Of a DNA stretch of 64,000 bases, positions 15,917 through 63,956 are shown piece by piece. Source of the stretch: a bacterium (GTDB taxonomy: Bacteria; Patescibacteriota; Minisyncoccia; Phycocordibacterales; UBA918); contig PAMC01000016.1 in the NCBI GenBank assembly GCA_002710785.1, positions 13,435-77,434 on the forward strand, read 5' to 3'. The position numbers and the translations under genes are program-made. The notes under the pieces are model-generated. The model was not told the DNA's origin and did not search any database. It saw nothing but the letters and a program-made list of their open reading frames with translations. Position 1 is the stretch's first letter, and every line of letters starts with the position of its first letter.

Positions 15917-17560
15917 CTACTCTTCGGCCAGGTACACAACTATGGTCGTGGTGCTCGTAGGAACCGCCGAGAGTAGTGCACCTGGTAGCGCCTCGCTCAG
16001 TGCGATCGCTTCGTCTTGAAGATCAGTTGGAAAGAGAACGACACTGTTGGTGCGAATGGTCGCGTCGGTTGCCAGTGTGGTAATCGGGAACTGATCAATG
16101 AGGGCAGCTGCTCGTTCTCCAGCCAAGCCAGGCTGTGGGCTGGCGTTGATAAAGGTGACTGAGTAACTAGCATCGTGCTGAAGACGATCGGCCGACATGC
16201 CTGGCTGTTGGAAGAAGGCGATCTCTTCAGAGTTATACGTCACTGCTTGAGCATCTAAGCCAATGGTTGCCTGATACGCATGATTGCTGGTTGCGGCCTG
16301 TGAGCGGACAAAGAGCCAGAGTATGAGCAGTAGTACGACTGCGCCAGCCACCGCAACAAGATGCGCGCGGGGTGACATAAGCCGCCAGAGGGCACGAGCC
16401 TCGCGATACAAGAGCGCGCAAACTTCTCGCGCGTGCGAAAACGTGATTTGTATACGCTGCAGCCAATCACTTTTAGTTGGTGTATCAGCTGTAGTTTGTT
16501 TGAGGTCAAGATCTGACGACTGGCGGATTAGTTCGTTTTTTACTTGGGTTGGTTGTGACTCAGAGAGACTCTTTAATGAAGTAACACCCGCCTGACGAAG
16601 CAGCCGACGGATGTACCACCGACTAACAGTGGCAATGAAGAGTATGATGCCGAGGACAATCGCAATAACGGTAAGTAGTGGCTTCACGGGAATAACCCAG
16701 AAGCTTGTCTTGGCTGAAACAAACTGTTTGGCTTCACTACCGTAGGTAAGTGTTGCCGCAGCAGTGTAACGGCCAATATCGAACAAAGAGGGTTCGCGTT
16801 GCCAAGAGAAGTCGTAGGTCCGAATCATGCCTGGGAGCGCGTTACCAAAACTAGTATTGATATTAACCGGGATGGAGCCGCGTTCAGCGCCCCACATGTT
16901 ACGAATAAGAATTTCACCAACTGGCCGAACATGCACGTTACCCGTGTTCTCGAACCGTAGCGCCAGCTCGGTACGCGGTTCGGTACTGTACGAGTTGCTG
17001 GCGGTGAAGCTACGTAAGAGCGCAGACTCGTACACATCGCCAGCGACACGTACAAACAGTAAACTGCTAATAACCTGTGCGGTACTAAAGCCTGAACTGG
17101 TTTGAGCATCAGGCGGCGCAGTGCTGATCTGAAGTGCGGCAAAATGACTACCTGGTGCAGCAACCTCAGGCGCAGTGACGACAAAGGCAACTTGCCGACT
17201 GGTATTTGGTGGGATGGTAATACTTGGCTCCGGTATATCAATCCAGTTGGCGAGCACTACCTCGTCTTCCGGCACTTGACTCTTCGGGATAATATTACTC
17301 TGACCACGCTCACCCACTGACTCAAAATGGGCTGGTTGCGTGTAAATTGTCAGCGGAAAATCATTGGTGTTTATAACTTTTACGCTACTTTGCCAAATTT
17401 CACCTGGCGCCAGTCCGAGCTCAATGAGAGTTGGGGCTACAGTGATACTCACCCCCTCAGCCTGCTGAGCGGAAACTGTGGCCGGCAAACACGCGAAAGT
17501 GTACGCGAGGGTGGCAACTATGAACAGGCGGAGCTGGTTACGTTTTGAGATTAATGTCAT
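15917..17560 (-). CDS. DUF916/DUF3324-like cell-surface protein, C-terminal TM anchor
   Basis: Signal peptide MTLISKRNQLRLFIVATLAYTFACLPATVSA; beta-rich domain VSITVAPTLIELGLAPGEIWQSSVKVINTNDFPLTIYTQP; C-terminal TM LLTVIAIVLGIILFIATV then a Lys/Arg tail and a cytoplasmic extension; start set to Met35 (17560), a 23-nt out-of-frame overlap with the upstream paralog. Confidence 0.55.
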   Translation of the reverse strand: MTLISKRNQLRLFIVATLAYTFACLPATVSAQQAEGVSITVAPTLIELGLAPGEIWQSSVKVINTNDFPLTIYTQPAHFESVGERGQSNIIPKSQVPEDEVVLANWIDIPEPSITIPPNTSRQVAFVVTAPEVAAPGSHFAALQISTAPPDAQTSSGFSTAQVISSLLFVRVAGDVYESALLRSFTASNSYSTEPRTELALRFENTGNVHVRPVGEILIRNMWGAERGSIPVNINTSFGNALPGMIRTYDFSWQREPSLFDIGRYTAAATLTYGSEAKQFVSAKTSFWVIPVKPLLTVIAIVLGIILFIATVSRWYIRRLLRQAGVTSLKSLSESQPTQVKNELIRQSSDLDLKQTTADTPTKSDWLQRIQITFSHAREVCALLYREARALWRLMSPRAHLVAVAGAVVLLLILWLFVRSQAATSNHAYQATIGLDAQAVTYNSEEIAFFQQPGMSADRLQHDASYSVTFINASPQPGLAGERAAALIDQFPITTLATDATIRTNSVVLFPTDLQDEAIALSEALPGALLSAVPTSTTTIVVYLAEE

Positions 17561-18533: not shown

Positions 18534-18535
18534 AA

Positions 18536-21500
18536 TTAGAATTCTGGTGTCACCAAGTACACAATATCGCTTGAGTAGTCGCCCGGCGGCTGTGTGCCAG
18601 TAACCACTATTCTGTATATTATATCCTCACTCTCTGTTGCTGGCACGGCACTGTACATGATTTCTTCTGGTGTAGTACTGGCCGCAGCGTAGGTATCGTC
18701 AAGGGCAAAGCGGCTGGTATTGCCTGAAAGTGTATCGTCACCAGCGTGGTACCCGAAACAGCTCGTGAGCCCAGAGCAACCAGCGCTCCATCCGCTTGGT
18801 GCGCTATTGGTGCCGGCAATGTCAGCAATGGTATCAGAATCGCTATTCTGCAGTTGTTGGCGCGTGTAGAGTTGAGTCCGATAGCCGCTGACAGCATTAG
18901 TATCGATTGATAAGCGTTGTCCAGCAATAGCATCACTGTCAGTTACCAGCGAACCGAATGGAATGGTCGTGGCAGTAGTGCTCGCAGTCGTCACCACACC
19001 TTCGGTTGAGGTGCCGGCTGGTAAACCGTTAACCGTAAAAGCGAGACTGCCCGACTCACCTACCAGCGATGGGTAGGTGGCTCCACTATCAAGTGGTACG
19101 ACGTCTCCGTTTGCTACGTCGTACACCCGGAAGTACCACACCTGACCGTAGTACCCAGAAATATTTTGGTACTGAATCGTAAACTCAAATTCAGTGGCGC
19201 TAAGCGCGGTATGCGTGTACCCAGTTAGCGTTAGATCCGATTCGTTGTGAGTACCACAGCCGACGCCCACACCAGCGTTACAGATATCGGTATTTGTTAA
19301 CACCTTTTCATCGATGATCGCATTATCGACGCCGGCGCCATCGTCGTAGCACCAGACATCGCTACCACCACAACTACCACTGTTTACCACATCGTTAACG
19401 GTGGCGAAGCCAGCTGAGTCAGAGTACTGGAGGCGGAACCGGGCGTTGGCTTGTTCGAGATTGTTAAGCTCGTCGACAATAACGCGCAGTTTAACGGTAT
19501 TACCTTTTTGAACTTCGACAGGTGCAACATTCTCAGCTGCTAGGTCGGTGCTCGGTGTGAGAGAGGTTTCATCGTCGTACCAACGCCAATCTGACTGCAC
19601 AGGTGAGTACCCTTCAGTGCGCAGCGAAGGATAGGTGAGGTATTCGGCGAGCTGCGTGCCATCATCTTGTACAACCCGGAAGCAGTAGTCGGAGCGTTGT
19701 GTTGCGCCATTGTGCTGAATCACCCAATCGTACTCAACATCTTCGTCTGCATTTACACTGTACGGGTTGGCAGTTGCTGAGCCACCCTCAACATACCGAC
19801 CAGACCGGTCGGAGACCGCCAAAAGTGTTTGGCCACCGGTTGGCGGGTTGGTACCAATAGCTGCATTGTCTGCAACCGCACCGTTATCAAAACCGCGCCA
19901 GATCGATCCGCTCCCGGGGGCTCCAACATCGTTCCAGCTGCTGATTGCAGAGCAGGTGGTTTCTTGTAGACCGTACTGCAACTTAAGTGACTGGAGCGTT
20001 GCAGGTAGCGTGCCGTTTGTGATGAGAAGTGAGGTGCGTAAGCGAATTACGTCACCGTCACCAACCGGTGTGTCGAGTACCGTGATCGGACTATTTTCAC
20101 CAATGCTGCCGGCGCCAGGGGGCCAGGCGTCGGTGGGGGTAAGGGCGTTTGTGTTGTCGTACCAGCGGTAGTCGTTTTGGCGGATTGAGACGTCTGCGGC
20201 CGGCCACTCCACAACCATGGCACGATACGAAAGGGTGCCTTGCGTGTCTGAACGCCAGATCTCAAAGGTGGTGGAGCTCGTAAGATACAAGCCAGCCATA
20301 ATTTCCGGGAAGTTGTTGGTCGCGCGATCAATAGTCGTGTTACCGAAAATCGCCGCATTATTGATGTCGTTTACACCAACCGCATCAAACGACACTGAAG
20401 TAGTGGCTGGTGCGGTACCCCCGGTAAAGAGTCCGCTCGCTGGAAAAACGGTCATCTCCCCTGCTCCGTTTTGAATATTTTCTATAACCCAGACTACCGC
20501 AGTATGGGTTTGGGCCATATCTGCGCCCGAGTCGAGCGAAAATGAGACCACTCCCATACTCGAGAGCCACGCCTGTACACCGTAGCTCGCCTGTTGTGAG
20601 GTAAACGTGTGCCGTTTTTGTGTCTCCAGAAAAGCTTTGGTGACAGCACTGACCGGCGTGATCGACTCTGTTTCGGTGACGCCGGCGCTTGAGAATTCAT
20701 GTTCCACTCGCTGCACCTTCCAGTTGCCACCTAAAAACTCCACAACAGCGTAGCTAAAGTCCGCACTGGTGTTGGTGGCACTTCTCGTAAGCACTACCTG
20801 ATTGGTGGAGCTCGACCAAGCGGCGGTTGCACGGTTGTTGCTAAAATTACCACGCGAAGCGTTAGTCATACGAGCTCCGGTAATAAACACAGCAATATCG
20901 CCATCGTCGGTAATTGGATTTATGGCTGAGCTTGTGGCGTACGTTTGTCCCGAGCTCATGCTAATAGTTCCTACGTCTCGCACAACCATTTCGTTGTCGG
21001 TACCAGGATCACCAATAAACTCAATGATTTCCCAGGCCACAAACGTGTTATTCACAGAGTCGGTATCACGCGTAATAGTAAAACTAGTTGGTAAGTTACT
21101 GGATGTGATGTACGCGGAAACATCGTCTGGATTTTGGTTACCGGCGCCGGTGTCACGACCAGCACCTGTGTGGTGGAAGTTGGTAATACGAACAAACGCC
21201 ACACTCGTTGAGGCGGGGGCGTCGTAGTCAACGCCGGCCGTAAGTGTAAGACTCGAACCACTGATGACGTTCGTGCCACGCTGCGTCTTGTAGTCACGGT
21301 TAGTTTTGGTGCTAATTTCTGGATACACATCGTACGCCACGAGAGGAGTGCCGTTCTCAACGACCCGGAAACAGAAATCAGTCTCAAATGGCGTATTGGC
21401 GGTAGTTGTGATTGAGAACTCAAAATCAACGTAATTTGTGCTCGAGAGAGTAGTGGTTGGTGTGCTAGCATCAGTTTCGGCTATACCTCCGTTACTGGTT

Positions 21501-24697: not shown

Positions 24698-24715
24698 CCC
24701 TTAATAATACCGTAT

Positions 24716-27900: not shown

Positions 27901-27906
27901 AGTGTA

Positions 27907-32042: not shown

Positions 32043-32174
32043 ACTCTACGTTGTTAAGCTGCAGCACCCATCACGAGGATAGCTGAGTCGACTCCAGACT
32101 CCACACCGAAGTCGCACTCACGATGCTGTAGCGTACAAATCGTCTCACCGGGCTGTACGGTGATTGGGCAAGCC

Positions 32175-33668: not shown

Positions 33669-33682
33669 ACCTCTTTGCAGTA

Positions 33683-55700: not shown

Positions 55701-58700
55701 GTGGCTCGTTACGCCATCGTAACTAGCGTTGAGGGCAATCTGCATTCCGTCCTCTTCGATCTCATCGTCGCGAGGGCCGTTGCCGTTACCGTTGGTATTA
55801 ACGTTACCGTCGATGTGGGTACCGATCCAATCAGAGTCGTTGTTGGATGCCACAGTTGCGATGCCGACCGGTGGGTTAATGAATGGGTTGCTGGAGTAAT
55901 CGATCTCAGTACCGATGTCATTCTGGAATGGACGCGCCTGCACGGCTGACACATTAGCGGCCGTGCCAGCAATCACTTGTATACCCGACCCACCCTCGTC
56001 CAGGGTCCACGTACCAGCTTCCATTACAATATAGTCAACATCGGTACTGCCGGTAAAGGCATTGGTGTAATCGTCAACTTTAATTTCGAAGGTGTTTGCG
56101 GTCTTGTTGCGGACTCGGGCGTTGCGGTTGTTACCGTAGGAACTACCGTCATACTCTGGCGAGGCTACTACCACCATGTTCTGGTAGCTACGCAAGGTAG
56201 TCACCTCCGTCCAGTTATTATCGGTGAGGCTGACGGTACCGTACTCGCCAAACTCTGGTGATACCGTCACCGCACCACTGGTCGCGACGGTACCGTCAAG
56301 TGTTCCCTGTTCAAACTGCTCATCCGTTGTCTGGAACCAGGTCGAGACGGTAACGCTGGTGTCAATCGTAAACGCGTCTGCTTCAGACCACGGAGACCAG
56401 GCATCGCCGCCATTAGGGTCCTTCGCTCGAGTGCGCCACCAGTACGTGGTGCCGTTCACGAAAGCTTCTCCCGCTTGTTTGGTGTAGGTAATCGTGTCAC
56501 CTGATGTAAACGGATTGGTATCGCCACCATCGCTTAAGTTTGCAAAGCCAGGGCTGGTGCTCGAATTGTAGGTTGAAGAACTGGTTTCAAACGTACGGTC
56601 AGTACTAAAAGAGATTTCATACTCTAGATCATCGCCCTGCGGATCGCTCGAGATAAAGTCAAACGTTGGCAATGTCTCGGCAGTTTTTTGGTTATCAAAC
56701 AGATCACCCAAGACCGGCGTTTCAACGCGCAGCGCCCAACGCACACCCCACTCTTCAAGCGAGAGCGTGCTACCGGCAAAATTGGCCACTAACCGCAATT
56801 CATTATAGGTGCTAGTATCGAGCGCCAAAATATCAATCGGGCTCGTGGTAGTTCCAGCCGAGTTGCCTTCGATGAGGTTGTTTGGCACCAACGTCCAAGT
56901 CCCATTATTGTTGTACTCAACCTGAATGGTTATGGTGCCCGCGGTTTCAGTATCACTCCAGAACACCTCTCCCCACGCGTTGCCAATGAGCGCGTCATCA
57001 AAGTCGATTTCGGTGCCGGTAATAGTGCCGGTCGCTCCCGTCACTGCGCCGGTAGTGGTACTCAGTCCAGCCGTCAACGTGTCGGTTGAGAATTGATCAC
57101 CAGTGGTCTGGTACCACTCGGTCACCGTTAAGGTCGGGTTTGTGGTGAAGCTATACGGAGTTGACCAGGCGCTGCTGGTTGCTGAGCCGTCTGGATCACT
57201 GGCGCGAACTCGCCACCAGTACGTTGTGCTACTGGCCAACGTCGTCGGCGTTGTAAAGCGGACTGTTGCTCCACTCACAAACGGGGCTTTGTCACTCGCA
57301 TCCGCAACGTTTTCAAAGTCAAGGAAGCTGTCGGCTGAGTTAACATCCACCACCGGCGACGGGAAAGCTGGGTCCGTGTCAATTTGTACTTGGTAGTCAA
57401 TCTCGTCACCAGCGTTGTCGGTAGTCACAAACGTCAGCTGGGTGTCGAGGTCAGCGATGTGGGCATTATCAAAATACGAAATGAGCTGCGGTACGTTTGG
57501 CGGACCGGCTGTCTCAAGTTGCGGATAGAGCGTGTAAGTTTGCAGCTCCCCTCCGGTGGCTCGTACCATCCGGAAGCAGTAGTTGGTATTGATGCCAACA
57601 TCCACTGCCGTGATAACCCAATCAAACTCCACCACCTCACCGACGCCTACGTCATTTGGTAGCACGTTTGAGAGATTTCGTTCTTCGTAGGTACCGAGCA
57701 CCGTTGAATCGGTAAGCGTGGTGGTTGCCAAGGTGGTACCGTCGCCAACGCTGGCATTATTAAAACCAGCAAAAGCTGCGGTGGTACTGCTCTGCTCGGC
57801 CAGATCAAGCCACTCAGTAATGAGCGAGCACTGATCTTGAGTGGCGGTGCCGTACTGTAGCTTAAATGCCAACGAGTCTTCAGTACCGGTCGCATTGCTC
57901 GCAGCTAAGTTCATGCGCAGCCGCAAGATATCTCCGTTGTCGACTGCCCCTGCACCTCGAATATCCTCGCCTTCACTCACGAATTCACCGCTACCAATCG
58001 ACCAGGTACTCGTTGGGGTCGAAACGTCCTCGTTTTGGTACCACGCAAATGAGCGCTGCTCGTAGCGGGCGTCATTAGCCAACTCTTGAGCCCCAAATGA
58101 GGCACCAAAGACGTTTCCGTACTTCCTCGCCTGCACAGTGCCGGTGACGTTGGTTTCTTCACTATCAACAGACACGTCTTCGTAGATGACGTAAATTGGC
58201 ACTCCATTGGTTGAAACTACCGTATGTCCTTCGGTGTACGTAACGTTACTGTTCGTACCTGAATCGCCAAAGTGTATGGTGCCTGGATAGTCACCGCCAG
58301 CCCCACACGAACCTGATGTCACCGTAGTACCAGCCGGACTGATAATCTCGATTGTCGCGGTACCAAATCGTGGGCTACAGGCTACCGCCACAAATTGGGC
58401 ATCGTTGGTAAGCGCAAATTCAGTACCAAACTCCCGCTCCGACCAGAACGCGACCGATTCACGGCCGTCAGAGTCGGCTTGCTGGATTGCTGCAATCGGC
58501 TCACTTTGAGCAACTAACCGGACCGAATCGCCGTCAAACTGAGCCGCCGCTGTACAGCCATCAACCACTTGACGGTCACCGCGCGTCAGTGGCTCAGTGC
58601 CTGAGGTTGTATCGTCGCTACAGTAGTAATCGGCGTTGGTTGTACCAGTACCACCGGCGAATACATAGTTTGAGTCATGACCATAAATTGGTTCCATGGT

Positions 58701-61700
58701 TGGTGGGTAGAGTGCATACCCGTCACCTGGTGACGTTGACCGGTGAAACGCGAGTACGGGACTGGTCGCCTCAATCATTACACCGTCACCATCGTTGGCG
58801 TTACCGGAGTTTGACGGGTCAGCCGTAAAAGTTGCAACCGCGCTCGTTGCTATACTTTGCGTTTGGTTGGCGGTGCCCGACGAGCCAATAAACGTACTTA
58901 CCGAAGTGCTGGCAAATGGTGCGTACACGTACCAGCGGTTCGTGTCGCGGTTGGTGGCGCCAATGTGGGTAGTCGTTGCAAACGAAATCGGCACGAGTGT
59001 ATCGCTGTTGCCATTACTGGTGTGTGAGACCGTTGAAGAAATCGGGCCATTCGCACTAATAACCGACGTGCCGGTAAACGTGCTAAAAACCGTGCGGTCG
59101 CCTGCGTCGAGTGTAACGGTACTACCGCCATCAATACTTACCTCGTTATTGTCAATCAAACTAATGACCGAGATATCATCGGCCCCGCTATTATCAACGA
59201 CGTAGTAAAGGTCTTGTGGAGTATCGTAGCTAAAGGTGGCCAACTCATCGCTCGCACTAGTCACGCTCGATGCGCCGTAGTAGAGCCAGATGGTGGTTTT
59301 TGCTCCTGCTGGCAACGATTCTACCTGCACCCACACGTCACTCTCTTGGCCGGAGTAGTCGTAGTGCTGGAGCCAGAAGTCAAGCTCAACAAAGTCTGTT
59401 ACCGTGAGCGCTTCTGCACTAGATGTGGCAAGCCAGCCTGCGTTATCACTCATGCTGTCGTAGATGACACTCGCCCACTCTGGAGTGCGTACCACGTCGG
59501 AGATGCGGAACGAGTCGAGCTGTCCCTCAAAGTTCTCAGCAGTACTAAAGTTACCACCGACAATGTCTTGGTCTTGTCCAATTAAAAGACCGCCGCTGTC
59601 GATACTTGTCGTGGCTATGACCGGACTGGCTGTAATCGGACTTTGCGCATCGCGCAGGCCATTGCGGATAACCGACTTCTCTTGGTTGTCCATATCACGA
59701 ATGGTCATGTAGTACTGCCAGTTGCCATCGTTGTACGTAGCCCCATTGTCGAGCGTCGCAGTTTCTTGGCCACCTTGCGAGTACAAACGAAGTAACGTGT
59801 TATTGTCGAGTCGATCCCAGTATTCGTTGGCTTGTCCGCTGTTGGCACCACTGAGGAGCGTCATGTCACTAATGTTGCTGCTCTCGTGCCACCAAGAGGT
59901 ACTGATGTTGGTGAGACCGTCGATGACTTCTTTTGGCAGACGGATGTAGTCAGTCTGATCGTCGCCAAACTCTTGCCCAGCCCCAAAGAGACCGGTCTTA
60001 TCGTCAGATGTGTTGTAGTCGTCAGCGTGGTACTCGTTAGCGGTCGAGTCGAGGTAGAGATTGTTGTTACCGGTACCAGCTGCATCTTCCTCAAGGTGGT
60101 AGACCGCGCGGTAGTTGTTCGTCCACACGTTCTCTGAGCCATACGTATCATCGCGGGCGTAGGCAGTGGCGTCCGGGTTATTAAAGTAGATGTAGTAGTT
60201 AGTATCGGCAGCCGCGGTGAGATTGGTCTTAAAGTAAAGCTCACCCGTGTTCGCGCCAGTATCAATTGCTACCAGTTCGTACGGGTACTCAGTCTGACCA
60301 TCTTCGCTAATCACGCGGATATCGCGACCGTCGGTTGCAACGTCGTTGAAGAAGGCGCTGCCGAGAATGCTCAAGTCGACGTAGACTGGGAAGTCGGTTA
60401 GATTCTCGCTGGCTGGTACGGTAATGCGCTGACGGTTGTTCCAACTTGTGTTGAACCAGCCCGGAAGCGATGTGCCACCAGCTAGCAGTGTGCTGCTCGT
60501 CGCGTAGAACGTAGTTGGATTGCGGTGGTTTGTTGCCTCGGCGGCGGTCCAGCCGTCGGTTCGCAAGTCGTCGCGCGTGGTAAAGCGCAGTTCGTCGATG
60601 TAGCCGTTATACGAGCCACCAGTCGTGTAGCGACCGACCTGCAGATTGTTCAAGTTGTATGGGTCGGCGATGTCTTGCAGTGCTGTCAACTGCTCAACGC
60701 CGTCTTCGTAGATCACGTGCCGACCGCCAATAGTGGTCTCACTCACTGTCGTAAAGTGTGTCCAAGCGTTAACAATTCCAGTGCGGTCCCAAATAGCATT
60801 TGAGGTTTGACCGAAGTAGAGGTACCCCCGGCCAGTTGCTGTGCCGTTGTTGTACCACGGCATGTACGACATCCAGTTAGGGTTGTTGTTTGTACCCCAC
60901 TGCCAAATCGCTTCCGCGCTGGCTGCTCCCTGCTGGTAAAGCCCGCTCGAGACGAGGTCCGTGCTCGACGCCCAGTTCCAGCCCGTTGCGGTAAGGTGGC
61001 CGCTGCTGGTAACGGTAAGGTCGAGTGCGCTACCCATGGCCCCGGTGGTGGTGGCAACGTTGGCGGTAGTAATAGTAAGGTCACGACCGTTACCCGTTTG
61101 GTCGGTGTAGGTGTCTCCGGTAGTGGTGGCGTTGTCACTAAAGTGGTACACCGCCTCAAAATCAGCCCAAACAGCGTTTCGACCGAGCGGATCACTCACT
61201 GCACGGGCGGTAGCATTTGCGTTGCCGGTGTAGATATGAAAAACCGTATCTTGGGCACCCGAAATGTAGTCGGCCAAGAAGTGCAATTCACCCGTTCGGG
61301 TGTTGGTATTAATTTCCACCACTGAGAGTGGGAGCTCGGTTACACCATCTGCTTTAGTAATACGAATGTCTCCACCATCGCTGCGTACTGTGTTCCAGAA
61401 GTCTGCGCCTAGTGTTGAGAGGTCAACAAACACTGGGTAACTGCTTAGGGCACCAGGTACTGCGCTCGCTTGCACAATGAGCGCGGTGCGTTCGCTCCAC
61501 GCTGGGTCATACGGATTTTCAAACTGCGTGGTAGTGGACTGGTAGAGATTGCCGCTGGTAATTTCTTGGACAAAACGAATGTCAGACCCATCGCTCTGCA
61601 CGTTGCTCCAGAAGTCACTTAAAGCGCTATCAAGTTGTAAGAATACCTGATGCTCAGTCAAATCGGTGGTGCCGCTGGTGTTATCAATCTCAATTGGAAT

Positions 61701-63956
61701 CCGGTACGTCCAGTCACTGTTCCAGAATGGGTCGAGGAGTCCGTACTCTTGGGTTCCCACTGCCTCGATCCAAAACTCACCTCTTGAAAAGGCTGGAAAT
61801 TCAATATCCATCTTAAAGTACCGTGTCTCACCTGCCTGGATGGTGAAGGACTCTGGAGTTTCGGTGCGTACCTCAAACTGCGGTGGCACCTCCTTTACCG
61901 CTGGGGCTACCCCGAGCAAACCACCGAGCCGAGCCAATCGACTGGTGTTAGTAGGCACAGCGTCAGTAGAGACTTCGGCAGTTTGCCAATCACGTCGGTA
62001 CACGGTTTTTGCGTGTTCAGCGACTCGCTTTTGCGTAATCCGACACTCAGTCTCCTCGCTGCCGAGCACGTCACACTGCTGCACCTGTTGAGTACTCGGG
62101 CACCAGTAACTGGCAGCGACAGTCTCCGTACTGCTGGTAGCGGCGCTCGTTGCGGTTGCTTGAGTAAACGGACGTAGGTCCAGCGCACGTGATTGTACTG
62201 CGGTCGTCCCGCTACTTGTTGCTGCACTCGTCTCAGGAGTTGGCTCAGTAGTGGTTGAGGTTTGGTCAGAAGACTCCGCTCCTGACGCAGCTGCGCTCGT
62301 GGTGGCCAAAGCTGCTTCATTCGAGGTGGTGGCGGTCTCTTCACTGGCAGCGATTGCAAGCTGGCCTTCAGTAGCCATCTCCCAACCACCGCTACAGTGG
62401 TAGACAAACGGGCGGAACTCCGGAATAGTTACTGCGCGTGGCCGGTTCTGGTTCCAGACTGATAGTTCAGTGACCTCTCCAACGCCATTAGGGAAGTACG
62501 TCTTAACGGTAAACGAATCTGTCCGGTCGCTCGTGTTAGAGACGTTAAAGTACATAGTCGCTTGCGTAAGTCCGTTGTAGGTCACATCGTCAGACTTAAT
62601 AATGAGCGTCTCGCCACGATTCTCGTCAGTAAAGCTAAAGTCGATAGTTTCCCCATTAGGGAGGGTGAGCGTATCGCCAGCCAGAACTTCGTCGCTAAAG
62701 TTATCGTCAAATGCCGCGAGTGGGTCGAGGGTCTCGTCCTCGGCAGTAGTAAAGAGCTCAAGCCAAACGGCATCGATATAGAGCTCCTCGAGTGTGCTGC
62801 GTTTGCCTTCGTACGCGACGCGAACCGAAAGATCGCGCAAGCTATCGGCGTCGGTGATAAACGGCAGAGCGAAGAGGTAGTAGTCACCATTAATGCTGTT
62901 ACTAACCTCGTCTTCAATTGTGATGTCACCGCCATCTTGCCACGTAGCCTCACCATCGAGTGAGTACTGGATGGTGAAGCGAGCCGCTTCGTCGAGGCGA
63001 GTGCTGCGCTTCTTCGCACCTAGGGAAAGTCGGAGTTGCCCCCCCGTCACCTGAGCATTGTCGGTAAATACGGGTAGCCAGAAGTCTTGCAGGGTCACGC
63101 CGTAGCTGCGTACTTCATTTTTGATATCAACGCCAATTCTTGGAGTCTCGTCAATCACGTCGGGACGCACATTCGCCTCATCGCGTGGCGTGGATGTGGC
63201 AACCGCGTCGCCACTGCTGGCCGGTGACGTACTGGTTGCTACTAGCGTTGGTGAAGTCGTGGCAGTTTCTGTCGTGCTCGTTGCACTACTTGGTTTCTCT
63301 TCAGGAGTTTCGAGTTCCTCTGTAGCGTTATCGGTAGTTGTCGCAGCTGACTCACTCTCGGACAGAACTTCTGTAACAAGTGCAGGGTCAGGTTGTGCTG
63401 CTTCGGTTTCTTGCGACTCATCAAGTGCCGCAGTGTCTGCCTCACTTTCGTCGCTCGTGGTAGCACTGTTTACAAACGCAAAGCGCTCCACAAAGTTCGC
63501 AAACGCAAACTGGAACTGTGTCCCCAGCCGGCGTAAAACAGTCGTGGTGGCGCTTGAGGTACTCTGGGTCGTCTCGGCTTCTGGTGGCGTGACGGGAACC
63601 GTGGTTGTAGCGATTGTTGGCTCAGAACTGGTTGCTGTCTCTGGCTCAGCAACTGGAACAGGGGCTTCTTCGGTACTACTGGCTACAGGCTGCTCATCAG
63701 CGGGGTCTACCACCTCTTCTGCTTCGGCAGATTCACCGTCTGGTTCTTGTACCGGCAGTGTAGTGCTCGCACTTGAGGTGGCTGTCTCCTCAGTCGCTTG
63801 CGGCGGAGTGTTTAGGCGCAGTGTCTCAACTCGGCGCACGTTTGGCTCAAGTGGTAAGTACGCAGAGTTAATCGTATTAAAATCTTGGTATAACGCATCA
63901 CCAGAAAGGTTCTGGTTGAGAATGGTCTCGACGTTTTCCCAGCCGCTGCTCATCAC
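40800..63956 (-). CDS. giant cell-surface protein (at least 7718 aa; N-terminus may lie beyond the window): low-complexity N-terminal region, 7 DUF2341-like modules, 6 LamG-like (concanavalin-like) domains, FN3-like and beta-helix-like repeats, Cys-rich C-terminal region
   Basis: Single 23 kb reading frame, open upstream of the GTG at 63956 to the window edge; DUF2341-like W-x-[YF]-R-x-x-I-x-I...L-T-[DN]-FPVYVDLS...SDG-DIR...YIYF at about 61740, 61440, 60400, 53810, 52240, 50200, 43070; LamG-like D-E-L-R-F at about 60590, 52990, 51410, 49375 and others. Confidence 0.85.
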   Translation of the reverse strand: MMSSGWENVETILNQNLSGDALYQDFNTINSAYLPLEPNVRRVETLRLNTPPQATEETATSSASTTLPVQEPDGESAEAEEVVDPADEQPVASSTEEAPVPVAEPETATSSEPTIATTTVPVTPPEAETTQSTSSATTTVLRRLGTQFQFAFANFVERFAFVNSATTSDESEADTAALDESQETEAAQPDPALVTEVLSESESAATTTDNATEELETPEEKPSSATSTTETATTSPTLVATSTSPASSGDAVATSTPRDEANVRPDVIDETPRIGVDIKNEVRSYGVTLQDFWLPVFTDNAQVTGGQLRLSLGAKKRSTRLDEAARFTIQYSLDGEATWQDGGDITIEDEVSNSINGDYYLFALPFITDADSLRDLSVRVAYEGKRSTLEELYIDAVWLELFTTAEDETLDPLAAFDDNFSDEVLAGDTLTLPNGETIDFSFTDENRGETLIIKSDDVTYNGLTQATMYFNVSNTSDRTDSFTVKTYFPNGVGEVTELSVWNQNRPRAVTIPEFRPFVYHCSGGWEMATEGQLAIAASEETATTSNEAALATTSAAASGAESSDQTSTTTEPTPETSAATSSGTTAVQSRALDLRPFTQATATSAATSSTETVAASYWCPSTQQVQQCDVLGSEETECRITQKRVAEHAKTVYRRDWQTAEVSTDAVPTNTSRLARLGGLLGVAPAVKEVPPQFEVRTETPESFTIQAGETRYFKMDIEFPAFSRGEFWIEAVGTQEYGLLDPFWNSDWTYRIPIEIDNTSGTTDLTEHQVFLQLDSALSDFWSNVQSDGSDIRFVQEITSGNLYQSTTTQFENPYDPAWSERTALIVQASAVPGALSSYPVFVDLSTLGADFWNTVRSDGGDIRITKADGVTELPLSVVEINTNTRTGELHFLADYISGAQDTVFHIYTGNANATARAVSDPLGRNAVWADFEAVYHFSDNATTTGDTYTDQTGNGRDLTITTANVATTTGAMGSALDLTVTSSGHLTATGWNWASSTDLVSSGLYQQGAASAEAIWQWGTNNNPNWMSYMPWYNNGTATGRGYLYFGQTSNAIWDRTGIVNAWTHFTTVSETTIGGRHVIYEDGVEQLTALQDIADPYNLNNLQVGRYTTGGSYNGYIDELRFTTRDDLRTDGWTAAEATNHRNPTTFYATSSTLLAGGTSLPGWFNTSWNNRQRITVPASENLTDFPVYVDLSILGSAFFNDVATDGRDIRVISEDGQTEYPYELVAIDTGANTGELYFKTNLTAAADTNYYIYFNNPDATAYARDDTYGSENVWTNNYRAVYHLEEDAAGTGNNNLYLDSTANEYHADDYNTSDDKTGLFGAGQEFGDDQTDYIRLPKEVIDGLTNISTSWWHESSNISDMTLLSGANSGQANEYWDRLDNNTLLRLYSQGGQETATLDNGATYNDGNWQYYMTIRDMDNQEKSVIRNGLRDAQSPITASPVIATTSIDSGGLLIGQDQDIVGGNFSTAENFEGQLDSFRISDVVRTPEWASVIYDSMSDNAGWLATSSAEALTVTDFVELDFWLQHYDYSGQESDVWVQVESLPAGAKTTIWLYYGASSVTSASDELATFSYDTPQDLYYVVDNSGADDISVISLIDNNEVSIDGGSTVTLDAGDRTVFSTFTGTSVISANGPISSTVSHTSNGNSDTLVPISFATTTHIGATNRDTNRWYVYAPFASTSVSTFIGSSGTANQTQSIATSAVATFTADPSNSGNANDGDGVMIEATSPVLAFHRSTSPGDGYALYPPTMEPIYGHDSNYVFAGGTGTTNADYYCSDDTTSGTEPLTRGDRQVVDGCTAAAQFDGDSVRLVAQSEPIAAIQQADSDGRESVAFWSEREFGTEFALTNDAQFVAVACSPRFGTATIEIISPAGTTVTSGSCGAGGDYPGTIHFGDSGTNSNVTYTEGHTVVSTNGVPIYVIYEDVSVDSEETNVTGTVQARKYGNVFGASFGAQELANDARYEQRSFAWYQNEDVSTPTSTWSIGSGEFVSEGEDIRGAGAVDNGDILRLRMNLAASNATGTEDSLAFKLQYGTATQDQCSLITEWLDLAEQSSTTAAFAGFNNASVGDGTTLATTTLTDSTVLGTYEERNLSNVLPNDVGVGEVVEFDWVITAVDVGINTNYCFRMVRATGGELQTYTLYPQLETAGPPNVPQLISYFDNAHIADLDTQLTFVTTDNAGDEIDYQVQIDTDPAFPSPVVDVNSADSFLDFENVADASDKAPFVSGATVRFTTPTTLASSTTYWWRVRASDPDGSATSSAWSTPYSFTTNPTLTVTEWYQTTGDQFSTDTLTAGLSTTTGAVTGATGTITGTEIDFDDALIGNAWGEVFWSDTETAGTITIQVEYNNNGTWTLVPNNLIEGNSAGTTTSPIDILALDTSTYNELRLVANFAGSTLSLEEWGVRWALRVETPVLGDLFDNQKTAETLPTFDFISSDPQGDDLEYEISFSTDRTFETSSSTYNSSTSPGFANLSDGGDTNPFTSGDTITYTKQAGEAFVNGTTYWWRTRAKDPNGGDAWSPWSEADAFTIDTSVTVSTWFQTTDEQFEQGTLDGTVATSGAVTVSPEFGEYGTVSLTDNNWTEVTTLRSYQNMVVVASPEYDGSSYGNNRNARVRNKTANTFEIKVDDYTNAFTGSTDVDYIVMEAGTWTLDEGGSGIQVIAGTAANVSAVQARPFQNDIGTEIDYSSNPFINPPVGIATVASNNDSDWIGTHIDGNVNTNGNGNGPRDDEIEEDGMQIALNASYDGVTSHGAEDVDYVIMDVADGTINGADFEAFNSSDSVDDTQGQGGHNQSFQTGFGSTPQVTLVHNNAEDGGDGGFGIKDTSGTNNASQIFLSLMEDGLGANGHTQEIVSVIAFEASSGLLTRANAGTLSGTIAGEPVIFSDGAGPKFENFDWTDSTPATSDIVYQLQYQVSADTWALIPDSAIPGNSVGTTTGPIDLTNVDINIYDTIRPYATLTCGGGNCPEVQDWQVEWSEGVTMSGNIFENDRITPVASGTVRAAVNGVLLSATGTIASGTWSLPNVTAFAGQTVQVWVDGAADPDEAVTAFVYDGLGDITGVTLYEGHLAFDADETGTVDVSGLALYDNSISANEDIFFNVDLANNLDVCAVGTCGDFNIYVAANQEFRPSSSTAAVITTHDIVNDGTLTLDSNTLEVSGSWINTATTSVAAATVAFNALVGTETIIDPSDPLAFNSLTFGTSTSVAQWDISADLDLSGNLIVAAGTFNRGTSSIAVAGDVRTYAGAQWSGVGTTTFDGSGSSIWQDLNASTSLQNIGIVVVDGASKTIVVDTAAAAYDVNIGANDTLNGGSDTLIQVGGDWTNSGSFIAGTSEVEIVPDDRTYPGIIPGSSDWYSDTDFTQRLPIALQASEIDSSLTNFPVYVDLSTLGSSFWGAVKSDGGDIRMTTDDGQTEIAVEVVSINSNTQTGELHFLAPSASSTGDTTFYLYFNNPSASMPASFSTYGSEAVWVDFDAVYHFEVATTGVNTIVPDATANGYDLTITGADIATSTGQLGTAITLVGSSGILTNSWSWASGDRLESSGWYKLSAASSEALWSWGTGADMNFMPWYSGTQRGYHRFGSTAGAFTFDFTPRDTVNWQHFTTVGPTSTSEQVITYINDIVRDNPTQTAADPSGGALQLGRYTTAGSWEGEMDELRFAQSTRGADWVSAEYSNQSDPTAFYATSSVETYVPDIIPDAPSHQITTGGSAFYALTLNDATTTPYFSDAAVTVDDDFTVATGTVTFPTTKLTVGGSFLNQGTFMHNNAELEFTSSAAETVTLGGTTFLNILDDVTFDGSGSWSITDTHATATGAVTISDGTVTFPSGNLSIGDTLTVTGSGSFSNNGGLVLFSSTNEEQVRTNGSAFNDVQFGTLSSLPWYGSGWNERVALTIAPNTVEASLSDFPVYVDLSTLGSDFWNGVASDGADIRVANGSGFVALPVDVVEFDAVGETGELHFLADSISDTATTTFYIYFANADATAPASDSAYGSEAVWDNYEAVYHFHEDPTISITDETGNGRDLTPAIGTPATTTGTLGTALDTTSGNVRLENAGWTWPAGEDMVSSGWYFQSAVDTGALWQFGVAVGGSEDTYLHYLPWYDSGDRGYFRFGETSGSDFRFTRNSTIWHHFTTVGRAAIGETNQIYEDNILRDSVTQTADGENPSNTGLRVGAYQTTVYMDIQIDELRFSSTTPSTAWIDAEYTNGNTPTAFYGVAASSESFTDAVPRFILKESTTDIDGNVVVQSSELIAPNDTLTIGGSMTTLDGLFDANTATTTFDSSAGNETISIEDNSFYNLVFDAAGGDWTPSGNVDVVNDARLVNGTQFTLAPDAVMTVGGIFTNSFASTSTTWTDSTIVLTGGDYTITGRLDDGDDYGTIQVSNDSDIVIWNSTIATSTILDTSSLYLPDFGGTNGLLRVYGEYQRMSGTEHWSYATDFDGTDLTGGNERPVTVEIGNGSELTFGTSTTLSVLGDATSTTTVSVLFGLYQLNLENATFASQYADFSGMGAEGIELRNGTTISTLTQTDIAVPAGRTGITVDAATMNAQPSSVFTGVSFASTTATNVYSADWNSQLTLTVPASSTLSTLTEYPVYVNLASLGSDFWSNVKSDGADIRVTTAGANELPIDVVEINTTTQTGELHFLAPAVSAAQDTTFYIHYNNPTASAYAATYRYGSEAVWDNYEAVYHFNEDPTVSITDETGNGRTLLPAVGTAATTSGQLGQAVDTTTSNVMLQSAGWTWTSGDDLISSGLYFMTNTDTGALWQFGTGNGTNNGTYLAFMPNYDLTNRGRHFFGITSGGEYTVSPYNNTIWHHFTTIGRATDGENNLIYEDNTLQDTVTQISSSQNPSNTGLKIGRYQGGTYGEIQVDELRFATSTQGTDWIDAEFRNFLQPDEFYATSTVSTAAGANVTTDGTPSTYWLFTGGGGDRYGEAFDADDGDPGSIQWDDSNYNISISGVVYADDGVTPMGAPVCNNSTAVVTVVIDGGTTYQTSCDAATGAYEVAGVTYVGEPKITAFLSSTASSSEVNVAILDETSGTGTVTSNLMNVTRPTVVDNSVLVLIAGKDDEPLINTLGGWTAIDSFGNTTGDDLASGAWYKVVADASTEPASYDFPVTDNNETYNYWMGSLLNVDTASPLAATTNWSKLQNEYDPIAPTATTTIDGSLVIAAAHVFNDTDVAVPSGNWATRAQNVVDGTNHNLGVVSRVARPAGATSTAQFGNVTIGRESQVIQMSFNPDASPTATGTAIAAVVTKTPLGAAAQPYKTINLVDQRTAVGTVANGATFTVERPEVENGDVLIAITAREDEFDISAPSGWQLEGELGLTTGNDMYTAVWSRVITNAATEAETYAFTNNDTAGTEEFSAWIGAYRGVDTSDIFDTDPVWSNEQNTSSPVAPGITTTNDGSYVLAAWYVIDDNDLVGPTSPWSTILQDARQGSRNLLLSSQLQTSAGATGDATATGGSTDDVNVVQFALKPASVSVLDSISDFDLYQNRVIVRHEDISPLSIADMNIFDSGDNGDVPFTVSTSTTPDSLTVSASSGLMVWNSKTFTGNGDITLAGSGGSTQDGSLLLGPSATLNMSGTEVLTIGGSLYLDTAATFNTPSSTVLFTATTTGQSIASAASSTLAFTAVSFTGAGGGWGVQTPITVINNLTVATGTLSGTSDITITNGNFTGNGTVAMVNGTVEIDRTNTLGGTTPWQFYNLVLGDGVTATQVTTPFGSATTTVRNRLTIDSGHLLDAGSSQWDLTGDGTVFVEDGTFLEDTSRITYGGNSTVTRTAYFDLAVEAATGSTAVTAPVTGLQVFGDLTVGSRGTTTFTLDTNDPLTVVAGDTYIGARGTLEASDTSSLQLFGSYDNDGVFTANGGLVEFLQATGTASVAAGASDFYDVSVAGGGTYLFTESATTTGDFSLTSAFTFTLQPGNTLAVGDVFTNTVSGANTNWSNSVLKLFGNTAYEVNTKTDADDYAELVVDNGTQPRFWNSSYSTTTISASSSLYSMDHNDVAGDLYIFGAYSNASYTDSWSYTTDWDGAALGSPRQADVYVEGGGSVTYTGGSLDVMGSTTASTTIQNQGSGEFSFTIGGTASTEWLDAEPRDVDSAGLSFTGTPTVVNIVNVDWLVDDNNASAMTVAGSVIDANPAKNFDRNTFNESGVTSPVNVTTSGVSVSSWRFTNHTGNLDGEAFDADSGDPGEIVWSDSAALISISGNIYNDEGTSWYTQCDGSTPNVRLVVAGLTSASTTCASGTGAYTFTNVGFGPSDSIIVYIDGESEAGATVTADPISNILNMDVYVDRVIVRHESTDAIRIADLAVWDSSDDADIPFTATTGGTNTVSFPTDTKLIVWDSKTFTPDGDVTLSTGTASHAGTLELQANATFTGAGSESHTIGGELLSGAGATLALNDAALTFTSTQSGRSIDSNDATFGALTFNGTGSWTVNDTTFAANGDVTITNGDVTLPAATSTFANDFTNTGGSFDANGGVLAFTATDAGNTITFGGSDAATIQFAGSGSWSISDTNATATASVTVATGTVTLPGGTFTVGTDFVVSDTVAHNSGTIRLTGTGTHVLTAGGNDLSSLQVDGSGSFTVTDATSAFLGDVTVAAGNLRLASSSTAIGGSLDATSGTLDVGTSTLLFDSTDTGETVDPGSNEFYRVVVNSATGGWTFSSATSTSDFSLLSASAFTLGSSETLYVGGVFTNTVGGANTTWTNSELILAAGTNFSANTKASTGDTYDTLTLIGDTDVRFWNSDYLVSTLSASSSIYSQDHAGSDGALRIYGEYVSQTVNEYWSYATDFDGVALGGSPRAVSVTFATSTLSNFTLESGTLEIIGATGASTTIQSAEASTLYDFTVSGGTFSADTYTFDDLAAGGLTFVGTPTISDLDRGVFNQATNTATMITLPQTALDANAGLTILEAVFTDGGFTGGANVTLDATSTNSWIFSTHFGDLSGEDYDVDGEDACSSIRWDDSACLLTEQTEYRWRNDDGGEGAVASTWYDTNWDARQRVRLQNGDASTYSNVPVLLSVTYDSDMQTDFDDLRFTDSTGTVLIDHWIERFSTGVSADVWVEVPSLPAASTTQIYMYYDNLTATTTSSSTLVFTAVDDFESGSLSEYSGDTTLFNIGSTYAWGGSNGLDTNGNETAKATDGIFTFDQTVSQGEIIRYRQYVDASGSDESCTLFGVQSPGTTNENYGVCIELQGTDRLSLVRDAESTDLVGGVVVLDQTNVTYSTGWYEIEVDWQTDDTIDVRLYNSGGTLVASTTATDSNYTSGGFGFTFWGFYGGWDSFVSYPRLDNKPTVYFGAEQVDGGATWRAPQGVAGSGYDFGDVARLRVAVENSGLDITNQEFRLEYAGKGVALTCEAVSGGSYSSVPAAGSCGVSPVCMINTTQVSSGDPTTDHLIIPSGTFSAGEIVSNTDNQTGFVDVNQQYYTELEYALNLTSNATEDAYCFRVTNAGTALDSYASIPELTLEFAPSVGVVTLNDGSDIVLSPGTTTPVVASTTVTDLNGYADIVAATTTFYRTTVGASCTPDDNNCYVTTLGTGCVLSGCSGTSCSLSCTADFAFHTDPTDGGSPYEGEEWYAYVEVADAATNSDFETSTGIIDVGTLRSISVDNLIGYGTLDINGVTASGSNPVSNISNFGNEALDVDVSGTDMSNGGVSIIDVTQQKFATSSFDHTTCTACITLSEIGSSIEVDLNKPTTSTPLVTDALYWGIAIPFGTASEPHSGINTFTATAD
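49250..52250. repeat. intragenic tandem duplication (about 2.04 kb period) of a DUF2341-like + LamG-like module inside the giant gene, with a near-identical core
   Basis: 49861-49957 and 51904-52000 differ at 5 of 97 positions by eye (cggccgttgcctgtttcgtcggtaatact...gaagtggtacaccgcctcgtagttatcccacaccgcttctgagccgta); flanks are about 70 percent identical over several hundred bp. Confidence 0.6.

Follow-up and report, generated by a model that had tools for sequence, protein, structure and literature searches.

The closest described systems are the Pam pilus, known from CPR bacteria, and the WxL gene clusters of Firmicutes. In the Pam pilus of Ca. Mycosynbacter amalyticus, PamA, PamB and PamE are the pilins, PamT is the tip protein, PamC and PamD are anchored chaperones and PamR is the anchor (bioRxiv 10.64898/2026.03.03.709456). 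According to the same preprint, polymerisation in the filament structures uses the linker that follows the N-terminal sandwich, and this linker and the C-terminal strands are well conserved among the Pam pilins, with the N-terminal domain being the least conserved part. PamC and PamD are described there as PapD-like with a transmembrane helix at the C-terminus, and PamR as a membrane-anchored FnIII protein, the N-terminal strand of which is proposed to terminate and anchor the pilus. Paceibacteria, ABC transporters, cohesins and WxL are not mentioned in the preprint. A WxL cluster encodes small and large WxL proteins together with WxLIP, a protein with the layout DUF916-DUF3324-TM; by prediction, the WxL sandwich is completed by a WxLIP loop that alone is disordered (PMC10599100).

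The window analyzed here is a stretch of 64,000 nucleotides from a genome of ~0.95 Mb. Positions 15917-64000 hold 16 non-overlapping ORFs, all co-directional on the minus strand, as are all the other features with coordinates below; a preliminary description had counted 19 co-directional genes. The organism belongs to the ultrasmall Paceibacteria (Parcubacteria), a very large CPR class of which nearly all members are uncultured. The coding share of the locus is 97.8%, no more ORFs of at least 40 aa were found in the gaps, and the ~48 kb represent roughly 5% of the genome. All structural proteins have a Sec signal peptide or a membrane anchor, and the Pfam and NCBIfam searches returned no enzyme-domain match for any locus protein, which agrees with the earlier claim of a surface assembly without enzymes. 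The same searches returned no sortase family match among the locus proteins, and an LPxTG-like motif is absent from the last 60 residues of every one of them. Neither an Rfam nor a tRNA scan had any hit in the window, and a promoter scan gave 11 hits against a shuffled expectation of 12.6, which is no excess. The arrangement had been called undescribed. Our literature search indeed retrieved no paper with it, only general remarks on DUF2341-rich proteins of >4000 aa in Patescibacteria, but the core logic has already been published for the Pam pilus and the WxL/WxLIP clusters. The principle of the locus appears akin to that of both systems and of chaperone-usher pili, and we judge it somewhat better than an even bet that the locus is a conserved Paceibacteria surface fibre or display apparatus built on beta-strand complementation. 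C-terminal assembly domains, together with membrane-anchored PapD/WxLIP-like partners, are the better-supported organising principle.

The candidate major subunit of this apparatus is a 381-aa Pam-type pilin-like protein (30897..32042), assigned by homology to CPR_Pam_pilin_C, the AF2 model and the conservation profile. It consists of a signal peptide, an N-terminal beta-sandwich (38-187), a linker with the sequence TVTVTATVDT (189-200) and, at 201-381, a C-terminal domain. In the AF2 model (pLDDT 82.6), there is a signal helix at 4-25, nine strands lie within 40-187, a beta domain covers 201-381, and the linker at 188-200 has a pLDDT below 50. The signal peptide, nine-strand N-terminal sandwich, conserved linker and C-terminal Ig-like domain all correspond to the description of PamA and PamB. 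The C-terminal domain matches the NCBIfam model NF058581 (CPR_Pam_pilin_C) over model positions 3-148 of 148 with E=8e-8 and 32.4 bits, under the curated cutoff of 55 bits. Among the 32 orthologs tested, 20 match this model, and no other, at E<=0.01, and none reaches the curated cutoff. We regard the homology to the Pam pilin C domain as significant at the sequence level and as lying outside the curated family boundary. These low scores and the lineage (Paceibacteria, as opposed to Saccharimonadia or Microgenomatia) are differences from Pam. In the conservation profile, the linker and the C-terminal strands are among the most conserved parts and the N-terminal domain is the least conserved. 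When the pilin profile was compared with the PDB, the best sequence match was 'ITVTASVDP' of dscCfaE, which at E=0.24 is not significant; this stretch is the engineered CfaB donor strand (PMC2650451), which the conserved linker resembles. Neither sequence nor fold searches located PamA or PamB in the PDB copies, and fold searches with the pilin model against this PDB, which is without their structures, gave generic Ig-like matches only (YweA/BslA, Gram-positive pilins and cohesins). Foldseek with the whole chain returned only multidomain adhesins with a TM of ~0.2 and was uninformative because the model consists of two flexibly linked domains. Relatives of the 381-aa protein are encoded in 322 species genomes, and its identity across candidate-phylum-level lineages is 45-57%.

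Upstream of this gene lies the sole long non-coding spacer of the gap table, with 492 nt (32043..32534). It contains a GC-rich hairpin at 32179-32197 (RNA fold z=-2.1) and has no Rfam match. A long spacer of 268-1084 nt is found at the equivalent position in 52 other loci. Judged from its position, it would fit separate, perhaps high, expression of the 381-aa polymer subunit.

A related C-terminal domain is found in a secreted protein of 2053 aa (18536..24697), which has a propeller-like N-terminal region followed by repeated beta-sandwich modules. Its C-terminus (1885-2053) matches the pilin C-terminal HMM with E=1.3e-22, the alignment beginning only at HMM position 17, past the linker, and it matches CPR_Pam_pilin_C with E=4e-5 and 23.7 bits. 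The same linker-less pattern is seen in the orthologs of loci L034 and L042. By these profile matches, the 2053-aa protein has the same C-terminal domain as the 381-aa protein, without the conserved linker. An acceptor domain with no donor linker is the arrangement of PamT, but here the acceptor-only subunit is a large multidomain protein. The tip adhesins of chaperone-usher pili (Fim, Pap, CFA/I, Csu) are likewise composed of a large receptor-binding part and a pilin domain that lacks a donor strand. The putative donor strand here is, however, internal rather than N-terminal, usher and outer membrane are both absent, and the chaperone-like proteins are membrane-anchored. The 2053-aa protein had been called a BNR/repeat giant; one Asp-box-like motif (TTDGGATW) speaks for this name, but there are no Pfam matches and no further regex support.

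The longest gene of the locus (40800..64000) encodes a secreted giant protein of at least 7732 aa in the window. The ORF of at least 7718 aa that had been reported is real and stays open to the window end, and the ortholog in Kaiserbacteria has 7750 aa. The GTG at 63956 is not the true start, since in the orthologs the start lies ~35 aa upstream of it and opens a Sec signal peptide. The giant is made of ~8 DUF2341 modules (E=4e-25, as had been proposed), LamG/pentaxin-like units and stretches of T/S/G-rich repeats, and Pfam also matches Pentaxin and Ig_Rha78A_N in it; comparing the giant with itself by BLAST gave no usable map of the repeats. At residues ~7535-7717 of the listed ORF, it has a C-terminal domain that we call class II. 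The same domain ends a secreted Cys-rich protein of 631 aa (34712..36607; class II HMM 2.7e-70 at residues ~425-629), for which no Pfam or NCBIfam match was found, and the domains of the two proteins align with BLASTP at 1e-16 and with hhalign at 4e-34. Both proteins are additional to what is found in Pam. With its occurrence in 850 representative clusters, class II is a second widespread C-terminal module and a mark of diverse large surface proteins. Equating class II with the Pam-type domain was rejected as unproven, as hhalign gave a probability of 1% (with 45+22 and then with 142 diverse sequences). None of 92 class II members matches CPR_Pam_pilin_C. Only a short motif, I-x-[YF]-G-x-L, is common to the two kinds of domain.

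In three membrane-anchored proteins with two Ig-like domains, the PapD/WxLIP type is recognised by fold or by sequence signature. The 307-aa protein (33683..34606), the gene of which always follows the 631-aa gene directly in the loci compared, is assigned by fold: its signal peptide is followed by two beta-sandwich domains, a loop that is conserved but of low confidence, and a transmembrane helix at the C-terminus. It has no sequence match to the WxLIP or PapD families, and a profile search of the PDB with its family was empty. The 331-aa protein (17538..18533; transmembrane segment 275-293) is a paralog of the product of the 581-aa ORF (15917..17560), with 28% identity over 292 aa (E=1e-16). 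The latter is ~547 aa long from Met35; its pair of Ig-like domains is followed by two transmembrane segments with a loop between them and, at the C-terminus, by LytR_C. It matches WxLIP_PGBD with E=0.0014; in the family of these two proteins, 19 of the 25 members match WxLIP_PGBD (best 1.1e-7), and the best LytR_C match is 5e-12. The proposed DUF916/DUF3324 likeness of all three proteins is therefore borne out by sequence for the 581/331 family and by fold only for the 307-aa protein, and DUF3324 was not detected by sequence. Usher and PapD had no Pfam match in any locus protein, and the PapD likeness is at fold level. Pfam and NCBIfam searches for WxL, PapD, TasA and SCPU at E<=10 found none in the four C-terminal domains or in the 307- and 331-aa proteins. 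The operon also resembles that of Pam in encoding PapD-like proteins that have a transmembrane helix at the C-terminus, and the WxLIP signature would for the first time connect Pam chaperones with Firmicutes WxLIP proteins at the level of sequence.

The preliminary description had interpreted the locus as a cohesin-dockerin scaffold with giant proteins. The modules are real. The 586-aa anchored protein (27907..29667) has a cohesin at 1.7e-7 (31.9 bits, above the Pfam cutoff), Big_13 at 1.3e-9 and fn3 at 1.7e-5, a transmembrane segment at 482-500 and a charged cytoplasmic tail. The 378-aa anchored protein (29645..30781; transmembrane segment 308-326, acidic cytoplasmic tail) and the 242-aa adaptor-like protein (26522..27250) each have a cohesin-like module below cutoff (22.2 and 20.9 bits). 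They are recognised by family-level matches, with Cohesin found in 10 members of the two families (best 6e-7), which brings the cohesin-like proteins to the three that had been listed. Both dockerin proteins were also retained. In the secreted 377-aa protein (32535..33668), an N-terminal strand right after the signal peptide ('ATTTLTLSICGN', kept in orthologs) is followed by Cys-rich DUF4215 repeats (2.7e-8), Ig-like domains (Big_6, 1.8e-6) and, at the C-terminus, a dockerin that has two Ca-binding repeats (Dockerin_1, 5.2e-6, 27.0 bits, above cutoff). The second dockerin, in the 242-aa protein, is below threshold (17.9 bits), but it is matched in 17 of 17 sampled orthologs (best 3e-6), and two DxDxDG-type repeats are visible in the sequence.

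These type I-like modules, the duplicated Ca-binding repeats, the anchored cohesins and the cohesin-plus-dockerin adaptor all have counterparts in cellulosomal and non-cellulosomal systems, and a cellulosome-like scaffold that assembles the giants into a surface complex, with the ABC pair as their exporter, has to be weighed. Two anchored cohesins and one cohesin/dockerin protein would allow a three-tier chain, and cohesin and dockerin proteins lie beside pilin and chaperone in small paralogous loci as well. However, there is one cohesin module per cohesin protein, a multi-cohesin scaffoldin is absent, no enzyme carries a dockerin, and the Pfam and NCBIfam searches found no dockerin in the 7718-, 2053-, 631-, 381-, 503- and 526-aa proteins. 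As neither giant has a dockerin, cohesin-dockerin pairing is probably not the organising principle of the locus. The ABC pair is genuine: the ATPase (37937..39262) is of the MacB/LolD/FtsE type (ABC_tran 1.1e-31; LolD, MacB and FtsE models 1e-49 to 1e-54), and the permease (36702..37910) is of the MacB type in the FtsX family (MacB_PCD 2.7e-16, FtsX 4e-18), with four hydrophobic segments and a large extracytoplasmic domain. Both resemble the Type VII ABC mechanotransducers (MacB/LolCDE/FtsEX) in the four-transmembrane permease, the MacB periplasmic core domain and the LolD/FtsE-like ATPase, and differ in a ~210-aa helical C-terminal extension of the ATPase without family assignment and in the fixed synteny with a surface-fibre locus. 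Calling the pair a dedicated exporter was an assumption, and none is needed because the giant orthologs have Sec signal peptides. MacB-type transporters (LolCDE, FtsEX, MacB) are known as mechanotransducers or extractors, not as exporters of folded giant proteins. We consider the scaffold explanation quite unlikely.

The 503-aa secreted protein (39269..40780) consists of four FN3 modules, as had been described (fn3 1.4e-21, Pur_ac_phosph_N 4.9e-25), and no membrane anchor was detected in it. With this protein, all the cohesin, dockerin, DUF2341, FN3 and MacB/FtsX assignments made earlier hold in profile searches. Like Pam, the locus has a membrane-anchored protein containing FN3, and it has neither usher nor sortase signal. 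A possible correspondence to PamR is only partial: the anchored 586-aa protein combines cohesin, FN3, Big_13 and a transmembrane segment, the four-FN3 protein is unanchored, and the conserved N-terminal strand is instead on the 377-aa dockerin protein.

Gene order is invariant in ~45 independent loci of Kaiserbacteria, Nomurabacteria and other Paceibacteria, so the synteny is not due to chance, and the genes are not dispersed in relatives. Protein identity across these lineages is 45-82%, with the permease at the maximum (77-82%), followed by the ATPase (74-78%) and the 503-aa protein (64-67%). A single gene order and this level of identity, for ~5% of the genome, suggest that the locus is likely central to Paceibacteria surface biology. 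The giant proteins have 45-60% identity across lineages, which is above expectation for host-specific adhesins and which we counted against our preferred reading. The same genomes contain a second, "mini" locus type of four genes encoding a pilin, a chaperone, a dockerin protein and an anchored cohesin, the last being a paralog of the 586-aa protein, with a few unassigned ORFs interspersed. In the mini loci, 22 in number, a gene of the 581/331 family comes directly after the pilin gene.

A surface apparatus built on strand complementation, our preferred reading, could work as follows. The anchored PapD-like proteins would cap the presumably incomplete C-terminal domains after export, and the 381-aa protein would polymerise, with each copy giving its inter-domain linker to the one that follows. 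The 2053-aa protein would accept a strand and could not donate one, which would place it at the distal end as an adhesin, and the 7718- and 631-aa proteins may be handled analogously by the adjacent 307-aa protein. At the base, the N-terminal strand of the dockerin protein, the cohesin-dockerin adaptor and the two anchored cohesins might form a tether in a PamR-like role. In a cell without an usher, the mechanical energy needed for extraction or assembly may come from the MacB-type pair. We infer the polymerisation, the anchoring role and the ABC function; what we propose for the cohesin-dockerin, MacB and TlpA parts follows their position and conservation. With this locus, the principle of the Pam pilus would reach one more CPR class, in a far more elaborate version, and the locus offers candidates for fibre subunit, tip adhesin, chaperones and anchor. 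It is a tentative and rather improbable further step to see all of this as one composite organelle, in which a donor-strand-exchange fibre bears giant distal adhesins, a cohesin-dockerin tether replaces sortase, usher or PamR, and the ABC pair powers assembly or release as a substitute for the usher. If that were true, the WxLIP signature of the chaperone-like proteins and the Pam pilin C domain of the subunit would link Pam pili and Firmicutes WxL clusters as two branches of one ancient monoderm strand-complementation system.

The strand-complementation reading has to be compared with a display without any fibre, in which the 381-, 2053-, 631- and 7718-aa proteins are each held singly by an anchored WxLIP-like partner; the locus would then be a group of displayed adhesins, which is the current proposal for WxL clusters. 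The composition is the one that defines a WxL cluster, in that a small and a large protein with a common C-terminal domain lie beside an anchored two-Ig-domain protein, the WxLIP_PGBD matches of the 581/331 family fit, and there are three anchors for four clients. On the other hand, none of the four C-terminal domains has a Pfam match at E<=10, the WxL signature PF13731 included, and the 381-aa client possesses, in addition, an N-terminal sandwich and a highly conserved linker, disordered in the monomer, of the kind used in Pam filaments. The long spacer, from its position, would suit a separately, perhaps highly, expressed polymer subunit. Such a purely non-polymeric display seems unlikely to us. 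In general, the locus has in common with WxL clusters the predicted completion of an incomplete sandwich by a strand that is disordered alone, and it differs from them in its far larger size, the ABC pair and the cohesin-dockerin modules. Far less probable still is a role of the 381-aa protein in an S-layer or another envelope lattice, for which the other genes would provide anchors and accessory surface proteins. Its relatives in 322 species genomes and the all-beta two-domain fold of the AF2 model would be compatible with a lattice, and the conserved long spacer could reflect separate, possibly high, expression. The 45-57% identity across candidate-phylum-level lineages is, however, unusually high for S-layer proteins, the homology is specifically to the Pam pilin C domain, and PapD-like genes accompany it in both kinds of locus.

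The 526-aa secreted protein (24716..26296) has a TolB-like beta-propeller core (beta_prop_Msarc 2.5e-11; TolB 2.4e-7, NCBIfam) between acidic low-complexity ends, and its gene is syntenic in 48 loci and absent from L088. The 217-aa protein (27247..27900) has an N-terminal membrane anchor (6-24), a helical remainder and a weak FtsL-like match only; its gene is syntenic in 51 loci. At the downstream edge, 15206..15796 encodes a membrane-anchored TlpA/ResA/DsbE-like thiol-disulfide oxidoreductase, as had been noted, with NCBIfam scores all far below the cutoffs (StoA 7e-8, ResA 2e-7, DsbE 1.6e-6). It may oxidise the many cysteines of the secreted parts. Like the three cohesins, the two dockerins, the MacB-type pair and the propeller protein, it is additional to the Pam set. 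The upstream flank is outside the window, and the flank comparison applies to the downstream side, where the TlpA-like gene is followed by the housekeeping genes tgt, uvrB, uvrA, uvrC and ddl; the conserved Pam neighbourhood has ATP synthase genes instead. In L088, the TlpA-like gene is found at the same position as here.

The locus on the minus strand at 15917-64000 is probably a strand-complementation surface apparatus related to the Pam pilus system of CPR bacteria and to the WxL surface clusters of Firmicutes. The preliminary description had proposed a non-enzymatic assembled surface structure with cohesin-dockerin parts, which stands, but it missed this better-supported core. The locus consists of 16 closely spaced genes (97.8% coding), and a scan of the gaps gave no additional ORF of at least 40 aa; therefore the 19 consecutive genes counted earlier are too many, while the observation is otherwise largely confirmed. 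The ORF of the giant protein (7718 aa) runs open to the window end. Its orthologs extend about 35 residues further at the N-terminus and begin with a Sec-type signal peptide; the one in Kaiserbacteria has 7750 aa.

When one genome per GTDB species was scanned, 322 genomes proved to encode relatives of the 381-aa protein of the locus, and 80 related loci were fetched. The gene order is invariant in about 45 of them, which are all those whose contig reaches far enough, so the expected synteny in relatives holds. The order is giant, FN3, ABC, MacB, 631-aa, 307-aa, dockerin protein, 381-aa, cohesin-378, cohesin-586, 217-aa, cohesin-dockerin-242, propeller and 2053-aa. Identity to the Kaiserbacteria and Nomurabacteria orthologs is highest in the MacB pair (MacB 77-82%, ATPase 74-78%). 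The FN3 and 307-aa proteins reach 60-67%, the dockerin protein 55-64%, the two giant proteins 47-60% in the parts sampled, and the 381-aa protein 45-55%. The locus takes up about 5% of a genome of about 0.95 Mb. The homologs carry the labels Paceibacterota, Kaiserbacteria, Nomurabacteria or Parcubacteria, and contigs from the Tara Oceans marine metagenomes encode identical copies of the locus proteins.

The C-terminal domain of the 381-aa protein matches the NCBIfam model CPR_Pam_pilin_C (NF058581) at E=8e-8 over model positions 3-148 of 148, under the curated cutoff, and 20 of 32 orthologs match this model and no other. The source of the family is a preprint of 2026 on Ca. Mycosynbacter amalyticus, in which Pam pilins polymerise via a linker donated to the following subunit. 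It describes PamC and PamD as PapD/FimC-like chaperones that end in a transmembrane helix, PamT as the acceptor-only tip and PamR as an FnIII membrane anchor; WxL, ABC transporters, cohesins and Paceibacteria are not mentioned there (bioRxiv 10.64898/2026.03.03.709456). The 381-aa protein has significant homology and a matching architecture to the Pam pilins, yet lies outside the curated family boundary. Its AF2 model (pLDDT 82.6) contains exactly nine strands within residues 40-187, then a linker at 188-200 with pLDDT below 50, and then a beta domain up to the C-terminus. In an alignment of 83 orthologs, the linker (TVTVTATVDT) ranks with the C-terminal strands among the most conserved parts, whereas conservation is lowest in the N-terminal domain. 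High conservation combined with disorder in the modelled monomer is as expected of a donated strand. The best PDB sequence match of the pilin profile, which is not significant (E=0.24), aligns the linker to 'ITVTASVDP', the N-terminal donor strand of CfaB that was engineered onto the C-terminus of dscCfaE (PMC2650451). Searches for similar folds with the pilin model gave generic matches; PamA and PamB were not among the structures compared.

Upstream of the pilin-like gene lies the longest non-coding spacer and the only long one in the locus (32043-32534, minus strand, 492 nt). It carries a GC-rich terminator-like hairpin at 32179-32197, about 140 nt ahead of the start codon, and has an RNA fold z-score of -2.1; an Rfam search with it gave no match. 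In 52 other loci, too, a long spacer (268-1084 nt) precedes the pilin-like gene. The 492-nt spacer may combine a promoter with a structured leader.

For the C-terminal domain of the 2053-aa protein, CPR_Pam_pilin_C gives E=4e-5, again under the curated cutoff. The pilin C-terminal-domain profile matches the protein at E=1.3e-22, only from a position past the linker, and likewise in the orthologs. Such a start of the match suggests that the 2053-aa protein could accept a strand but not donate one. In lacking the donor linker it resembles the acceptor-only PamT, and, among chaperone-usher pili, the acceptor-only tip adhesins of the FimH/PapG type. We consider the chances even that a true fibre is formed with this protein at the tip. 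In one genome, L088, the propeller and 2053-aa genes are missing and a 154-aa ORF stands instead, while the two WxLIP-like genes and the TlpA-like gene are kept (L088:15434-19704); thus some lineages do without the large acceptor-only subunit or have replaced it.

The 331-aa and 581-aa proteins are mutual paralogs (E=1e-16) weakly related to the 307-aa protein, and 19 of 25 members of their family match Pfam WxLIP_PGBD (DUF916), the best at 1e-7. In homology and architecture, these anchored, putative chaperones are PapD/WxLIP-like. The 581-aa ORF (15917-17560, minus strand) begins too early as listed and overlaps the upstream gene; the likely start is Met35, giving a 547-aa form. Past its first membrane span, this form has a second span and then LytR_C (residues about 467-544; best E=5e-12 in the family), which suggests an extra cell-wall contact for the longest WxLIP-like protein. 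In the Firmicutes, WxL clusters comprise a small and a large protein with a common C-terminal WxL domain plus one WxLIP, and by AlphaFold prediction a WxLIP loop, disordered alone, completes the WxL sandwich (PMC10599100).

The 7718-aa and 631-aa proteins have about 180-245 C-terminal residues in common (BLASTP 1e-16; hhalign 4e-34). This module, which we call class II, is encoded at 40803-41402 and 34715-35314 (minus strand), the ends of the giant and 631-aa proteins, respectively, and terminates in YWGI-x-VP...G-x-N-x-F. Pfam and NCBIfam models gave no match to it. Membership in the Pam-type domain family was rejected as unproven, since no significant relation was found and none of 92 diverse members matches the Pam model; in this respect the two proteins do not fit the Pam picture. 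An exhaustive search (E<=1e-3) found class II in 850 representative clusters, almost always at the very C-terminal end of proteins that range from 150 to more than 3100 aa. Its near-constant place across such different lengths indicates a general C-terminal module for varied passengers. Judging from adjacency alone, the 307-aa protein would handle the class II proteins.

To the preliminary description, the locus also looked like a cohesin-dockerin scaffold with giant proteins. The set itself, three cohesin-like and two dockerin proteins, is supported. The Pfam Cohesin model is above threshold for the 586-aa protein and sub-threshold for the 378-aa and 242-aa proteins, and Dockerin is above threshold for the 377-aa protein and sub-threshold for the 242-aa protein. 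Dockerin_1 was found in 17 and Cohesin in 10 of 33 scanned orthologs of the 378-aa and 242-aa proteins, so the weak calls hold at the family level. However, each cohesin protein has one cohesin, and dockerins are confined to the 377-aa and 242-aa proteins; therefore the giants cannot be docked in this way. Right after its signal peptide, the 377-aa protein has a conserved amphipathic strand (ATTTLTLSICGN in orthologs), which might plug the last subunit and connect the fibre with the anchored cohesins, a part like the one suggested for PamR. As for the ABC genes, the expected MacB/FtsX pair was recovered as a MacB_PCD+FtsX permease and a LolD/FtsE/MacB-type ATPase. With LolCDE and FtsEX as models, the pair would more likely transmit force outward than export the Sec-dependent giants. 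We rate both proposals, on the cohesin-dockerin set and on the ABC pair, as doubtful. At its C-terminus the ATPase (37937-39262, minus strand) has a helical extension of about 210 aa (residues about 230-441) without family assignment, conserved in orthologs with 74-78% identity over the whole protein.

Further domain calls agree with the earlier reading: four FN3 modules in the 503-aa protein, DUF2341 repeats together with pentaxin/LamG-like units in the giant, and no enzyme domain in searches with the locus proteins. No LPXTG signal or sortase was found in these proteins. The secreted ones are Cys-rich, which fits the adjoining thiol-disulfide oxidoreductase, a neighbour retained in L088.

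Many genomes carry a second, smaller locus type. It combines paralogs of the pilin and the chaperone with a dockerin protein and an anchored cohesin, with a few unassigned ORFs in between, so these four form a recurring module. This locus type was found in the genomes L039, L041, L042, L045, L047, L050, L054, L055, L069, L070, L073, L074 and L086 (for example, L054:9941-18592); in L039 and L042 it comes directly after the main locus. It starts with the pilin gene and a WxLIP-like chaperone of about 360 aa that lacks LytR_C; then come three small ORFs (about 140, 275 and 280 aa), a dockerin-family protein of 615-625 aa, another small ORF, an anchored cohesin of about 500 aa and, last, a large protein. 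When compared with Pam, the main locus comes from another CPR class, and a literature search found no description of its large conserved additions.

The downstream flank starts with the TlpA/ResA-like gene, as had been noticed before, followed by the housekeeping genes tgt, uvrB, uvrA, uvrC and ddl. UvrC (2685-3920, minus strand) is short, with 411 aa instead of about 600. The UvrC model aligns to it in two stretches, of which the best spans positions 6-243 of the 574 in the model, and the score falls just under the equivalog cutoff. Between uvrA and uvrB lies an odd neighbour for repair genes, a 430-aa protein (7021-8313, minus strand) with a Lys/Ala-rich repetitive N-terminus, a weak match to the Ca_tandemer adhesin repeat and a C-terminal hydrophobic segment.
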